A stretch of DNA of 64,000 nt from Escherichia coli (GCF_045037415.1 NZ_CP173438.1); one strand, 5' to 3'. Shown: positions 3,636 through 7,826, counted from the first letter of the stretch. Translations and numbers: made by a program. Notes: generated from the sequence alone by a model not told the origin.

Positions 3636-4388
3636 ATGACCATTAAAAATGTAATTTGCGATATCGACGGCGTGCTGATGCACGATAACGTCGCCGTACC
3701 GGGTGCAGCGGAATTTTTGCACGGGATTATGGATAAAGGCCTGCCGCTGGTGTTGCTGACCAACTATCCTTCGCAGACCGGGCAAGATCTGGCGAATCGC
3801 TTTGCCACTGCCGGTGTCGATGTACCGGATAGCGTGTTTTATACCTCCGCAATGGCGACCGCCGATTTTCTGCGTCGCCAGGAAGGCAAGAAAGCGTATG
3901 TGGTGGGCGAAGGCGCACTGATTCATGAACTGTACAAAGCCGGTTTCACTATTACCGATGTGAACCCTGATTTTGTGATTGTTGGCGAAACGCGTTCCTA
4001 CAACTGGGACATGATGCATAAAGCAGCCTATTTCGTCGCTAACGGTGCACGCTTTATCGCCACCAACCCGGACACCCACGGGCGCGGTTTTTATCCCGCC
4101 TGTGGCGCGTTGTGTGCAGGGATCGAGAAAATCTCCGGGCGCAAACCGTTCTATGTTGGAAAGCCGAGTCCGTGGATCATCCGCGCGGCATTAAACAAAA
4201 TGCAGGCGCATTCGGAAGAAACGGTGATTGTCGGCGATAACTTGCGTACCGATATTCTGGCGGGCTTCCAGGCCGGTCTGGAGACGATTCTGGTGCTTTC
4301 TGGTGTTTCGTCGCTCGACGATATCGACAGTATGCCGTTCCGCCCAAGTTGGATTTACCCATCGGTCGCTGAAATCGACGTTATCTGA
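3636..4388 (+). CDS. nagD: HAD-family UMP/ribonucleotide phosphatase NagD/UmpH
   Basis: 250-aa ORF with HAD motif DIDGVL near N-terminus; synteny. Confidence 0.95.
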   Translation: MTIKNVICDIDGVLMHDNVAVPGAAEFLHGIMDKGLPLVLLTNYPSQTGQDLANRFATAGVDVPDSVFYTSAMATADFLRRQEGKKAYVVGEGALIHELYKAGFTITDVNPDFVIVGETRSYNWDMMHKAAYFVANGARFIATNPDTHGRGFYPACGALCAGIEKISGRKPFYVGKPSPWIIRAALNKMQAHSEETVIVGDNLRTDILAGFQAGLETILVLSGVSSLDDIDSMPFRPSWIYPSVAEIDVI

Positions 4389-4393
4389 ATAGC

Positions 4394-4425
4394 AACCACG
4401 CCTCAGGGCGTGGTTTCTTATTTTT
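4394..4425 (+). terminator. rho-independent terminator after nagD
   Basis: Hairpin aaccacgcc-tcag-ggcgtggtt followed by T-rich run. Confidence 0.6.
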
Positions 4426-4643
4426 ACCCATCATTAAAATCACCCCATTCAATAAAACCCGTCAAAAACTATCGATCCATCAATAAATATACCCAAAAGC
4501 CCTCCCCTTTTTCATCAATCAGCAATCGCCATTACGTTTTTTATTTTTCCACTGCCAAATCGCTTGCGCACCGTGCTGCTTTGCGGCATTTTTTTAACAA
4601 GTAAACACAACACGCAGTAAACACCAGGTTAATGGAGAAGGTT

Positions 4644-6308
4644 ATGTGTTCAATTTTTGGCGTATTCGATATCAAAACAGACGCAGTTGAGCTGCGTAAG
4701 AAAGCACTCGAGCTGTCACGCCTGATGCGTCATCGTGGCCCGGACTGGTCCGGTATTTATGCCAGCGATAACGCCATTCTCGCCCACGAACGTCTGTCAA
4801 TTGTTGACGTTAACGCGGGGGCGCAACCTCTCTACAACCAACAAAAAACTCATGTGCTGGCAGTAAACGGTGAAATCTACAACCACCAGGCATTGCGCGC
4901 TGAATATGGCGATCGTTACCAGTTCCAGACCGGGTCTGACTGTGAAGTGATCCTCGCGCTGTATCAGGAAAAAGGGCCGGAATTTCTCGACGACTTGCAG
5001 GGCATGTTTGCCTTTGCCCTGTACGACAGCGAAAAAGATGCATATCTGATTGGTCGCGACCATCTGGGGATCATCCCACTGTATATGGGCTATGACGAAC
5101 ACGGTCAGCTGTATGTGGCCTCAGAAATGAAAGCCCTCGTGCCAGTTTGCCGCACGATTAAAGAGTTTCCGGCGGGGAGCTATTTGTGGAGTCAGGACGG
5201 CGAAATCCGTTCTTATTATCATCGCGACTGGTTCGACTACGATGCGGTGAAAGATAACGTGACCGACAAAAACGAGCTGCGTCAGGCACTGGAAGATTCC
5301 GTTAAAAGCCATCTGATGTCTGATGTGCCTTACGGTGTGCTGCTTTCTGGTGGTCTGGATTCCTCAATTATTTCCGCTATCACCAAGAAATACGCCGCCC
5401 GTCGCGTGGAAGATCAGGAACGCTCTGAAGCCTGGTGGCCGCAGTTGCACTCCTTTGCTGTAGGTCTGCCGGGTTCACCGGATCTGAAAGCAGCCCAGGA
5501 AGTGGCAAACCATCTGGGCACGGTGCATCACGAAATTCACTTCACTGTACAGGAAGGTCTGGATGCCATCCGCGACGTGATTTACCACATCGAAACTTAT
5601 GATGTGACCACTATTCGCGCTTCAACACCGATGTATTTAATGTCGCGTAAGATCAAGGCGATGGGCATTAAAATGGTGCTGTCCGGTGAAGGTTCTGACG
5701 AAGTGTTTGGCGGTTATCTCTACTTCCACAAAGCGCCGAACGCTAAAGAGTTGCATGAAGAGACGGTGCGTAAACTGCTGGCCCTGCATATGTATGACTG
5801 CGCGCGTGCCAACAAAGCGATGTCAGCCTGGGGCGTGGAAGCACGCGTTCCGTTCCTCGACAAAAAATTCCTTGATGTGGCGATGCGCATTAACCCACAG
5901 GATAAAATGTGCGGTAACGGCAAAATGGAAAAACACATCCTGCGTGAATGTTTTGAAGCGTATCTGCCTGCAAGCGTGGCCTGGCGGCAAAAAGAGCAGT
6001 TCTCCGATGGCGTCGGTTACAGTTGGATCGACACCCTGAAAGAAGTGGCAGCGCAGCAGGTTTCTGATCAACAGCTGGAAACTGCCCGCTTCCGCTTCCC
6101 GTACAACACGCCGACCTCAAAAGAAGCGTATCTGTACCGGGAGATCTTTGAAGAATTGTTCCCGCTTCCGAGCGCCGCTGAGTGCGTGCCGGGCGGTCCT
6201 TCCGTCGCTTGTTCTTCCGCTAAAGCGATTGAGTGGGATGAAGCGTTCAAGAAAATGGACGATCCGTCTGGTCGCGCGGTTGGCGTTCACCAGTCGGCAT
6301 ATAAATAA
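4644..6308 (+). CDS. asnB: asparagine synthetase B (glutamine-hydrolysing)
   Basis: ORF track starts at 4632 (MEKVM...) but the real start is the ATG giving Met-Cys (MCSIFGVFDIK), the N-terminal Cys nucleophile of class II amidotransferases; 554 aa. Confidence 0.96.
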   Translation: MCSIFGVFDIKTDAVELRKKALELSRLMRHRGPDWSGIYASDNAILAHERLSIVDVNAGAQPLYNQQKTHVLAVNGEIYNHQALRAEYGDRYQFQTGSDCEVILALYQEKGPEFLDDLQGMFAFALYDSEKDAYLIGRDHLGIIPLYMGYDEHGQLYVASEMKALVPVCRTIKEFPAGSYLWSQDGEIRSYYHRDWFDYDAVKDNVTDKNELRQALEDSVKSHLMSDVPYGVLLSGGLDSSIISAITKKYAARRVEDQERSEAWWPQLHSFAVGLPGSPDLKAAQEVANHLGTVHHEIHFTVQEGLDAIRDVIYHIETYDVTTIRASTPMYLMSRKIKAMGIKMVLSGEGSDEVFGGYLYFHKAPNAKELHEETVRKLLALHMYDCARANKAMSAWGVEARVPFLDKKFLDVAMRINPQDKMCGNGKMEKHILRECFEAYLPASVAWRQKEQFSDGVGYSWIDTLKEVAAQQVSDQQLETARFRFPYNTPTSKEAYLYREIFEELFPLPSAAECVPGGPSVACSSAKAIEWDEAFKKMDDPSGRAVGVHQSAYK

Positions 6309-6318
6309 GACGTGTAAT

Positions 6319-6346
6319 ATTGCCCCGGAGAAATCCGGGGCAATTT
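6319..6346. terminator. bidirectional hairpin between convergent asnB and the 145-aa ORF
   Basis: Perfect stem attgccccgg / ccggggcaat with AGAAAT loop, flanked by A/T on both sides. Confidence 0.55.
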
Positions 6347-6349
6347 CAG

Positions 6350-6787
6350 TTACTGGGGCGCTTGTTGATTCTGATATGCAGTAAGGAAATGTTCCGGGTT
6401 TGCCACATCGCTATTTGACAACTCATCACTGTAGGCCACCAACCAGGTCGCCTGCTCATCCGGAATATGCAGTCTGCCATTTCCCTCTTTCAGGCGTAAT
6501 AACTCAAAAGATTTGCCCTTAATTACGGCGGTATAGGATTTCTCACCTTCCTGTAATGCTTTCACTTTACAGCGAAATATCTGACCATCGATGTCATTAT
6601 CAACATGCGATACCTGAATGAGGGCTTCATTAGAAGCTTTCGGGCCTATCCGCATCATCCACACCACAGCGCCTTCCTGCCCACGATAGCCAAAAACATA
6701 TTTACCGATTTCCGGTTTAACCGTATCGGCGAACGCAGATTGCATAAGTAATAACGCACCCATCAACGCCGTCATAAAACGCAGCAT
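6350..6787 (-). CDS. hypothetical exported protein, 145 aa, predicted signal peptide (MLRFMTALMGALLLMQSAFA|DT)
   Basis: Clean ORF, hydrophobic N-terminal signal with AFA cleavage motif, no TM segment afterwards; no family recognised. Lies between asnB and the metT promoter. Confidence 0.6.
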   Translation of the reverse strand: MLRFMTALMGALLLMQSAFADTVKPEIGKYVFGYRGQEGAVVWMMRIGPKASNEALIQVSHVDNDIDGQIFRCKVKALQEGEKSYTAVIKGKSFELLRLKEGNGRLHIPDEQATWLVAYSDELSNSDVANPEHFLTAYQNQQAPQ

Positions 6788-7050
6788 AGTATTCCCTCAA
6801 TAAATCGCCTGAAGTGGTAGCAGAGATGCAGGCGTAGCGATCCCTGCCCTGTCCTGTTGCAACGGGCCAGTATTTCATAGATTAATTTCCCACCACTATT
6901 GTTGAATTCCGAATTTCATCCTGTATGACAAAAGAATGGCTGTAGGGTGGGGAAAAAACACAAAGTAAACAATAATTGACGAATATAGCGCCATGCTGTT
7001 CGCAACCTAACCAAACAGTCACTTTCGAGCAATTTTCCTTGAAAAAGAGG

Positions 7051-7079
7051 TTGACGCTGCAAGGCTCTATACGCATAAT
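7051..7079 (+). promoter_or_regulatory. sigma70 promoter of the metT tRNA operon (-35 TTGACG, 17-bp spacer, -10 CATAAT, GC-rich discriminator)
   Basis: Motifs read directly; GC-rich discriminator gcgccccgc typical of stringently controlled stable-RNA promoters; ~40 bp upstream of the first tRNA. Confidence 0.6.
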
Positions 7080-7120
7080 GCGCCCCGCAACGCCGATAAG
7101 GTATCGCGAAAAAAAAAGAT

Positions 7121-7197
7121 GGCTACGTAGCTCAGTTGGTTAGAGCACATCACTCATAATGATGGGGTCACAGGTTCGAATCCCGTCGTAGCCACCA
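7121..7197 (+). tRNA. metT: tRNA-Met (CAU), elongator
   Basis: ggctacgtagctcagttggttagagcacatcactCATaatgatggggtcacaggttcgaatcccgtcgtagccacca; cloverleaf with CAU anticodon, encoded CCA. Confidence 0.95.
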
Positions 7198-7207
7198 TCT
7201 TTTTTTT

Positions 7208-7292
7208 GCGGGAGTGGCGAAATTGGTAGACGCACCAGATTTAGGTTCTGGCGCCGCAAGGTGTGCGAGTTCAAGTCTCGCCTCCCGCACCA
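7208..7292 (+). tRNA. leuW: tRNA-Leu (UAG), long variable arm
   Basis: gcgggagtggcgaaattggtagacgcaccagattTAGgttctggcgccgcaaggtgtgcgagttcaagtctcgcctcccgcacca. Confidence 0.95.
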
Positions 7293-7315
7293 TTCACCAG
7301 AAAGCGTTGTACGGA

Positions 7316-7390
7316 TGGGGTATCGCCAAGCGGTAAGGCACCGGTTTTTGATACCGGCATTCCCTGGTTCGAATCCAGGTACCCCAGCCA
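7316..7390 (+). tRNA. glnU: tRNA-Gln (UUG)
   Basis: tggggtatcgccaagcggtaaggcaccggtttTTGataccggcattccctggttcgaatccaggtaccccagcca. Confidence 0.95.
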
Positions 7391-7424
7391 TATTCTTCGA
7401 GTAAGCGGTTCACCGCCCGGTTAT

Positions 7425-7499
7425 TGGGGTATCGCCAAGCGGTAAGGCACCGGTTTTTGATACCGGCATTCCCTGGTTCGAATCCAGGTACCCCAGCCA
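7425..7499 (+). tRNA. glnW: tRNA-Gln (UUG), identical duplicate
   Basis: Identical 75-nt sequence to the preceding tRNA-Gln(UUG). Confidence 0.95.
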
Positions 7500-7514
7500 T
7501 CGAAGAAACAATCT

Positions 7515-7591
7515 GGCTACGTAGCTCAGTTGGTTAGAGCACATCACTCATAATGATGGGGTCACAGGTTCGAATCCCGTCGTAGCCACCA
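7515..7591 (+). tRNA. metU: tRNA-Met (CAU), elongator, duplicate
   Basis: Identical to the first tRNA-Met. Confidence 0.95.
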
Positions 7592-7639
7592 AATTCTGAA
7601 TGTGTCGAATATGTTCGGCAAATTCAAAAACCAATTTGT

Positions 7640-7714
7640 TGGGGTATCGCCAAGCGGTAAGGCACCGGATTCTGATTCCGGCATTCCGAGGTTCGAATCC
7701 TCGTACCCCAGCCA
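7640..7714 (+). tRNA. glnV: tRNA-Gln (CUG)
   Basis: tggggtatcgccaagcggtaaggcaccggattCTGattccggcattccgaggttcgaatcctcgtaccccagcca. Confidence 0.95.
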
Positions 7715-7751
7715 ATTTATTCAAGACGCTTACCTTGTAAGTGCACCCAGT

Positions 7752-7826
7752 TGGGGTATCGCCAAGCGGTAAGGCACCGGATTCTGATTCCGGCATTCCG
7801 AGGTTCGAATCCTCGTACCCCAGCCA
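7752..7826 (+). tRNA. glnX: tRNA-Gln (CUG), duplicate
   Basis: Identical to preceding tRNA-Gln(CUG). Confidence 0.95.

Follow-up and report, generated by a model that had tools for sequence, protein, structure and literature searches.

A gene for a predicted exported beta-barrel protein between asnB and the metT tRNA operon of Escherichia coli, and its deletion from K-12

The asnB-metT interval and its gene

We analyzed a 64,000-nucleotide stretch of an Escherichia coli genome (GCF_045037415.1 NZ_CP173438.1), referred to below at its full length as the window, and in it a small protein-coding gene located between asnB and the tRNA operon metT-leuW-glnUW-metU-glnVX. The asnB gene occupies positions 4632-6308 on the plus strand, with its stop codon at 6306-6308, and is convergent with the 145-codon gene, the stop codon of which is at 6350-6352; the operon of seven tRNAs lies beyond the gene, at 7121-7826 on the plus strand. 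The gene starts with ATG and its product is 145 amino acids (aa) long. No alternative open reading frame (ORF) accounts for the interval. A coding sequence identical to the window gene is annotated under RefSeq WP_000943484.1 in strain SA186, and further alleles carry RefSeq annotation in strains MS6198 and OkiPb01715. Literature searches on the accession and on the asnB-metT locus returned nothing relevant.

An earlier reading of the window, made from the sequence alone, had described a clean 145-aa ORF with a GC content of about 46 percent, below that of its neighbours, convergent with asnB across a shared hairpin. These points hold: the ORF is present and annotated and is under purifying selection, as detailed below; its GC content is 45.9%, compared to 50-54% in asnB; and the hairpin was found between the two stop codons (Table 1).

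Table 1. Features of the asnB-metT interval, in coordinates of the window.
Feature	Position	Strand	Basis and remarks
Protein-coding gene, 145 codons and stop	6350..6787	-	Intact ORF; RefSeq WP_000943484.1, "hypothetical protein"; dN/dS, homologues
Signal peptide MLRFMTALMGALLLMQSAFA, codons 1-20	6728..6787	-	Read from the sequence; predicted signal peptidase I cut after AFA
Mature protein, 125 aa, about 14.0 kDa, isoelectric point 5.6	6353..6727	-	Computed mass and isoelectric point; AlphaFold2 model
Shine-Dalgarno sequence GAGGG	6794..6798	-	Sequence; 6 nt ahead of the ATG
Candidate extended -10 element TGAAATACT	6869..6877	-	Conserved in 6/6 aligned upstream regions; one substitution in E. 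whittamii
GC-rich hairpin, 11 bp, AUUGCCCCGGA/UCCGGGGCAAU	6319..6344	both	Fold energies, z-scores; between the asnB stop and the gene stop
Segment missing from K-12, 431 bp (codons 1-116 and 82 bp upstream)	6439..6869 (equally writable as 6434-6864)		Junction analysis
Direct repeat GGCCA, left copy, 5 bp, at the deletion junction	6434..6438	+	Junction analysis
Direct repeat GGCCA, right copy, 5 bp, at the deletion junction	6865..6869	+	Junction analysis
Relic kept in K-12, last 29 codons and stop (89 nt)	6350..6438	-	Alignment, junction, tblastn

Selection, loss and ancestral position

Using Nei-Gojobori comparisons, we calculated the ratio of nonsynonymous to synonymous substitution rates (dN/dS) between the window allele and three others. 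The ratio was 0.033 for the allele of MS6198 (synonymous rate, dS, of 0.18), 0.091 for that of OkiPb01715 (dS 0.80) and 0.089 for a Salmonella enterica allele (dS 0.74); thus, the window gene is under strong purifying selection. In the alignment of orthologues, the start codon, the reading frame and the signal peptide are intact from Escherichia to Pseudocitrobacter. At the level of these comparisons, the ORF is shown to be a functional, selectively maintained chromosomal gene.

Two of the alleles have peculiarities of their own. Compared to all other aligned Escherichia alleles, the allele of the sequence type 131 (ST131) kind carries two private changes, S105R and S116L; residue 105 is usually E in the G-E-L-Y-L-P motif of the wider family described below. 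The OkiPb01715 allele is far nearer to the allele deposited under Salmonella enterica (dS 0.20) than to the other E. coli alleles (dS 0.74-0.80), and AsnB of this strain is a different protein accession. This pattern suggests a divergent Escherichia lineage, recombination, or a mislabelled species in one of the records.

In K-12, the gene is reduced to a fragment. The gap between metT and asnB is 379 bp in MG1655 versus 812 bp in the window, and the excess of about 433 bp consists of a 431-bp deletion and two 1-nt indels. The deletion junction is identical in K-12 MC4100 and in MS 16-3, with exactly 431 bp lost between the GGCCA repeats. Residues 116-145 are independently detected by tblastn in genomes with the deletion. 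The annotation of MG1655 contains nothing between metT and asnB, hence the relic is unannotated; in MC4100 it is likewise present as unannotated spacer sequence. The sequence-only reading had assumed no protein-coding gene between metT and asnB in K-12 and had taken the gene to be probably strain-variable. Both statements agree with the data, i.e., MG1655 annotates no such gene and contains no intact identical copy, and the segment is kept in a minority of E. coli genomes. The same reading had put the nagD-to-metT interval at some 290 bp longer than in K-12, which underestimates the aligned difference of 431-433 bp.

The distribution of the gene was assessed in a census in which the asnB-metT interval was compared by megablast to 5426 complete E. 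coli genomes. The flanks were found in 5424 of them, and the full interval in only 985; the internal 426 bp were found in exactly the same 985 genomes, in one copy each, and always in the chromosome. The segment is deleted in the remaining 4441 of the 5426 genomes (about 82%). Identity to the window among the 985 carriers is at least 99% in 566, 95-99% in 415 and 80-90% in 4; those sampled rows of the highest class that name a sequence type are ST131. The junction and the census, taken together at the sequence level, show that one 431-bp deletion allele took the gene from K-12 and from about 82% of complete E. coli genomes.

A second, independent inactivation is a 1-nt deletion near codon 81 in strains 042 and M00057, in which the gene is annotated as frameshifted. 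In an evenly spaced sample of the 95-99% band, 6 of the 16 rows match over 423 nt, as the frameshifted M00057 does, compared to 424 nt for intact alleles, and the frameshift is carried by some genomes of the phylogroup D/F-like kind. The ST131-type genomes, like the window, retain the intact gene. The gene is dispensable in E. coli and, because it has been lost from 82% of the genomes, it is probably dispensable outside particular niches.

It should be noted that MS 16-3 combines B2-like flanks of the window type (99.3% identical, the hairpin included) with the 431-bp deletion junction of K-12. Either recombination transferred the deletion allele, or deletion between the GGCCA repeats occurred more than once.

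The order asnB, the gene, the seven-tRNA operon and ubiF is common to Pseudocitrobacter cyperus, P. vendiensis, genomes deposited as Salmonella enterica, E. whittamii and other Escherichia. This order is shared across genera; therefore, the gene predates E. coli at this locus. Within the Escherichia-Salmonella-Pseudocitrobacter group, this synteny shows the gene to be ancestral at the asnB/metT locus, as far as gene order can show it. The sequence-only reading had regarded the gene as extra, and this has to be reversed: the gene is ancestral, and it is K-12 that holds a deletion allele with the last 89 nt of the gene.

With these data, two alternative accounts of the gene can be weighed. An islet gene, horizontally acquired and inserted beside the tRNA operon, would be consistent with the low GC content of the ORF compared to its neighbours, with its position adjoining the tRNA operon, and with the presence of homologues at other loci in other Enterobacterales, once again beside tRNA-Met. 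We consider this origin hardly credible, as the last 89 nt of the gene, its 3' end, are still present at the locus in K-12, next to a clean microhomology deletion junction, the gene occupies the same position in three genera, no integrase, repeats or mobile-element genes are found nearby, and there are no phage matches. Conversely, the gene might be a decaying, functionless leftover, an ORF heading for loss in all E. coli. The deletion from 82% of complete genomes, the frameshift in other lineages, the consensus promoter scan without a match, and the private substitutions S105R and S116L of the ST131 allele all point in this direction; the dN/dS values of 0.03-0.09 over dS of up to 0.8, however, are incompatible with neutral drift. 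Neither the reading frame nor the signal peptide nor the ribosome-binding site is disrupted from Escherichia to Pseudocitrobacter, and the AlphaFold2 model of the protein is confidently folded, so that ongoing decay appears very unlikely.

Carriage on plasmids was also considered and rejected. The "plasmid" matches are records of 0.28-4.9 Mb that represent pieces of chromosomes or, in Xanthomonas sacchari, a 0.5-Mb replicon. In PLSDB, several E. coli "plasmid" records of 0.28-4.9 Mb hold the chromosomal asnB-metT region and are misfiled chromosomes.

Protein family, fold and possible function

The sequence-only reading had recognised no family for the protein, and neither did the curated libraries. 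The window protein has no match in Pfam, even at E <= 10, and no Pfam family is matched by any of 60 relatives; in NCBIfam it has no match either, and the ten relatives tested match no model for the barrel domain described below. The defence families of PADLOC yielded no match for the window protein, PHROGs only marginal ones (E 0.02-0.05), and searches of PDB sequences with two profiles nothing below E of about 0.9-1. A word-indexed search found close relatives only, in Escherichia spp., rare Salmonella, Pseudocitrobacter and Superficieibacter. An exhaustive phmmer search over 1.84 billion cluster representatives, by comparison, found at least 150 representatives at E <= 0.001 (the 150 that were listed include two spurious ones), 64 of them at E <= 1e-10. 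These relatives are mostly 135-155 aa long, with 25-40% identity. Two apparent multi-copy members, P0088 (3944 aa) and P0186, were rejected as spurious: they are Ig/PKD-like repeat proteins without a match to the hidden Markov model (HMM) of the family.

Sixty relatives were aligned, and this alignment was used for the counts of motifs, Pfam matches and leaders, whereas the genome scan relied on an 11-sequence alignment and detected 78 genomic loci. The family occurs in Gamma- and Betaproteobacteria, Rhizobium, Bacteroidota and Myxococcus. Its conserved motifs are RPE-x-G-x-Y-x-x-x-Y near the mature N-terminus, V-W-x-x-R-x-G-P, (G/H)-(I/V)-D-(H/N)-x-(W/I)-D, G-E-L-Y-L-P, and P-E-H-F-L-T-x-Y-L-x-Q at the C-terminus; cysteine is absent from the mature part in 42 of the 60 members. 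Y85 and Y119 of the window protein also belong to the conserved positions. These profile and motif comparisons show that the window protein belongs to a widespread family without a Pfam or NCBIfam model.

The precursor begins with MLRFMTALMGALLLMQSAFA followed, after the predicted cut, by DTVKPE. The leader contains R3, a 12-residue hydrophobic core and A-x-A at positions -3/-1; the protein sequence contains no lipobox cysteine and no later hydrophobic segment. As read from its sequence, the protein thus has the n-h-c organization and the cleavage site of a soluble protein exported via Sec and signal peptidase I, with no lipobox and no stop-transfer segment, as the sequence-only reading had stated (a canonical signal peptide cut after SAFA, and no further transmembrane segment). 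The signal peptide is kept in all close orthologues, an N-terminal hydrophobic leader is found in 59 of the 60 family members, and a lipobox in none of the 60. AlphaFold2 models the signal peptide as a helix (residues 2-18). Because of this signal peptide, the window protein is likely to be exported to the periplasm.

The AlphaFold2 model, built with the 60-sequence alignment, has a mean predicted local distance difference test score (pLDDT) of 93.3 and a predicted TM-score (pTM) of 0.82. Eight beta strands span residues 27-119, and a helix follows at the C-terminus (131-142). The architecture predicted for the mature part, with high confidence, is a soluble up-and-down beta-barrel of eight strands with the helix as its cap. 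Among the fold neighbours, for which a figure of unlabelled quantity was tabulated, the barrel domain of D-aminopeptidase (1ei5) has 9.4, the PliC lysozyme inhibitors 4mir and 3oe3 have 8.8 and 8.7, PhiA has 7.9, barrel domains attached to beta-lactamase-like enzymes have 6.7-7.8, avidins 5.6-7.1, small outer-membrane barrels about 6-7.7, and YdhA/MliC 5.8. A Foldseek search of the PDB gave nothing below E 0.01, with TM-scores of at most 0.42; no solved structure is a recognisable homologue of the window protein. In the clustered AlphaFold database (AFDB50), Foldseek recovered members of the family with 22-48% identity in Atlantibacter, Yersinia, Pantoea, Brenneria, Rosenbergiella, Xanthomonas, Pseudomonas, Dyella, Duganella, Rhizobium, Pedobacter, Spirosoma, Fibrella and Cytophaga, as well as longer Myxococcus proteins with 18-20% identity. 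These relatives are almost always labelled "uncharacterized protein", "lipoprotein" or "secreted protein".

The barrel is also found as a part of larger proteins. Three signalling proteins match the family HMM over their last 120-130 residues. In P0065, the order is Guanylate_cyc (a class III cyclase), a transmembrane segment, a Pro/Ala-rich linker and the barrel domain; in P0106 and P0190, it is TIR_2, a transmembrane segment and the barrel domain. Since no leader precedes the N-terminal catalytic domains, the barrel of these fusions would lie outside the membrane. PADLOC models are matched by the TIR and cyclase parts only. Among the other architectures, P0053 is a tandem pair of barrel domains, and P0126, P0162 and P0171 are about 270 aa long and carry an additional domain, which contains cysteine, at the C-terminus. 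P0095 is a eukaryote-like protein, rich in low-complexity sequence, with a response-regulator receiver domain and the barrel domain at the C-terminus; it is matched by an 842-aa protein of the yeast Blastobotrys adeninivorans (AFDB A0A060SYI3), a fold match at 27% identity, and the domain could have been transferred into fungi.

The genomic surroundings of the homologues differ between lineages. In Superficieibacter, as in the metagenomic genome of a relative within the Enterobacterales, the homologue is located between a gene for an FhuE-like TonB-dependent receptor and ptsG (L013, L025, L026, 2500-6900); in L014, the same locus lacks the receptor gene. In another Enterobacterales genome (L006, 5001-6313), it lies between amiC and tRNA-Met/mltA. 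In these Enterobacterales, the homologue is a single-gene insert at differing core loci. The Pectobacterium homologue sits after a gene for an AdrA-like diguanylate cyclase. Some Pseudomonas genomes (L033, L044, L052, L083, about 3800-7500) have a divergent AraC-family regulator gene upstream of the homologue and, beginning 0-19 nt downstream, a gene for a membrane Peptidase_M48 (HtpX-like), which looks like a lineage-specific operon; in L044 and L052, the peptidase gene is followed by a gene of about 225 aa without a family match. One TIR fusion (L017, 5001-5993) overlaps by 4 nt with the gene of a PGDYG-domain protein, which itself comes after a gene for a DHH phosphoesterase.

On balance, we consider it probable, with moderate confidence, that this functional ancestral gene encodes an exported barrel acting as a periplasmic binding or sensing module. 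We favour a binding or sensing role because of the fold class, the lack of any sign of a catalytic family and the place of the barrel in the TIR and cyclase fusions, which resembles that of a sensor; the main reason is that the same domain forms the extracytoplasmic C-terminal part of TIR and class III cyclase proteins. The exported protein would act in the periplasm as a non-enzymatic binding module, in which the barrel and its conserved loops would capture a small molecule, a protein or an envelope component. The binding elements might include R46-x-G48-P49, the (G/H)-(I/V)-D63-(H/N)-x-(W/I)-D67 loop and the C-terminal HFLTxY helix, and the free-standing E. coli form might sequester or present in the periplasm the same class of ligand as that detected by the fused sensor forms. 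In P0065, P0106 and P0190, the barrel lies C-terminal to the transmembrane segment with the cyclase or TIR domain opposite, as in the extracytoplasmic sensor domains of single-pass signalling proteins; most members of the family, the E. coli one included, are in contrast free-standing secreted proteins. The family is not known to correspond to any sensor-domain family described so far, although no search aimed at this was made.

Several observations weigh against this assignment. Only a small minority of the 150 listed representatives, about 4, have the domain fused to a signalling domain. The clustering of neighbours at 48 loci revealed no partner conserved across genera, and hence no clue to a ligand or a pathway. 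The loss of the gene in most E. coli implies that its function is not needed in most niches, and a scan for consensus sigma-70 sites found no promoter upstream of the gene on its strand.

The rival functions that the fold brings to mind were compared with the binding-module reading. According to one of them, the protein would be a PliC/MliC-like periplasmic inhibitor protecting peptidoglycan by binding host lysozyme or another exogenous muramidase or peptidase. The single point in favour of such an inhibitor is the moderate similarity of fold, the model being an eight-stranded beta-barrel as expected; that fold, however, is very common, and the Foldseek TM-score to PliC-St is 0.42 over the query. 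Sequence comparison to the PliC/MliC proteins (Pfam MliC, PF09864; 3oe3, 4mir, 2f09) revealed no similarity at the sequence or profile level: neither the window protein nor any of the 60 relatives matches Pfam MliC or Ivy (MliC at E <= 0.1), and hhalign of the family profile with E. coli MliC gave a probability of 3.6%, with only the signal peptides aligned. The defining inhibitory motifs of MliC are SxSGxxY and (F/Y)WxKG. E. coli MliC carries both SxSGxxY and WxKG, whereas both are absent from the window protein and each occurs, by regular-expression search, in 2 of the 60 relatives. The inhibitory loops and the conserved disulfide of PliC/MliC are missing; a cysteine pair is not conserved in the family, as Cys is lacking in 42 of 60 members. 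The window protein also exceeds the PliC/MliC proteins by about 40 residues and ends in a helix that they lack; and the family, unlike PliC/MliC, also serves as the outside domain of signalling proteins, a use on TIR and cyclase proteins that does not fit an inhibitor. An inhibitor of this kind is therefore unlikely. Identity with Ivy (Pfam PF08816) was rejected: a Rosenbergiella relative is labelled "Ivy" in UniProt without matching the Ivy profile, and 0 of the 60 relatives match it.

A narrower form of the binding module, i.e., a calycin-type carrier (lipocalin-, avidin- or fatty acid-binding protein-like) that would sequester a metabolite, a vitamin or a lipid in the periplasm, is a doubtful though somewhat better candidate. 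Compared to avidin and streptavidin, bacterial calycins and the C-terminal barrel of factor-H-binding protein, the window protein has TM-scores of at most 0.42 at E >= 0.01, and no shared motif was recognised by eye. The "lipocalin-like" barrels of D-aminopeptidase (DAP) and of beta-lactamase/penicillin-binding protein-like enzymes (1ei5, 5hal, 4whi, 2qmi) serve as accessory domains in serine peptidases of the cytoplasm or periplasm, in contrast to the free-standing or TIR- and cyclase-fused barrels of this family; identity to them is 5-10%, and the root-mean-square deviation from 1ei5 is 8.9 A.

A bolder extension of the binding-module reading can be offered only tentatively. The family may be an undescribed extracytoplasmic ligand-sensing domain, either free in the periplasm or wired to TIR, class III cyclase and, in yeast, response-regulator outputs; the E. 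coli copy, intact in ST131 and deleted in K-12, would then possibly detect or neutralise a specific host- or environment-derived molecule.

For protein annotation, these results describe a widespread family of small, predicted exported beta-barrels outside the curated libraries, which is a candidate for a new domain-of-unknown-function family. For E. coli genomics, they reveal a clean presence/absence polymorphism at a core locus, where the laboratory reference represents the derived, deleted state with an unannotated relic, and the pandemic ST131 lineage retains the intact gene under selection. The locus is an ordinary accessory-gene polymorphism, and the hypothetical protein was already annotated, its family being undescribed. 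Neither the polymorphism nor the family overturns current understanding, and the gene is a tractable target for knockout and biochemistry in ST131.

Signals flanking the gene

The Shine-Dalgarno region TTATTGAGGGAATAnTATG is conserved across Escherichia, Salmonella and Pseudocitrobacter. Farther upstream, TGAAATACT can be proposed, from its sequence and conservation, as a candidate extended -10 element of the gene. A second conserved block was found at 6894-6922 in the six-genome alignment. It lies 130-160 bp upstream of the promoter of the tRNA operon, a sigma-70-like promoter at 7051-7079, and may serve metT instead of the gene. A sigma-E-like promoter around the conserved GGAATTC was rejected by eye, its spacer being about 22 nt. 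The putative 5' untranslated region folds no better than its shuffles (z = -0.75), and Rfam gave no match. K-12 has lost the gene but kept the candidate -10 element. If the guess at this element is right, a short orphan transcript that crosses the relic and ends at the asnB hairpin is conceivable in K-12, as a matter of speculation.

The hairpin has a folding free energy of -23.6 kcal/mol on the plus strand (z = -5.9) and -21.0 kcal/mol on the minus strand (z = -5.0), and none of the shuffled sequences folds equally well. A terminator scan made no call at this hairpin, and its U-tracts are poor on both strands; a U-poor bidirectional terminator is plausible. At the base of the stem, two compensatory pair changes distinguish the window from K-12 (ATTG..CAAT versus ACAG..CTGT), which argues that the structure is maintained, and the hairpin thus appears to be under selection despite the poor U-tract. 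In strain 042, the hairpin is intermediate between these two types and contains one mismatch.
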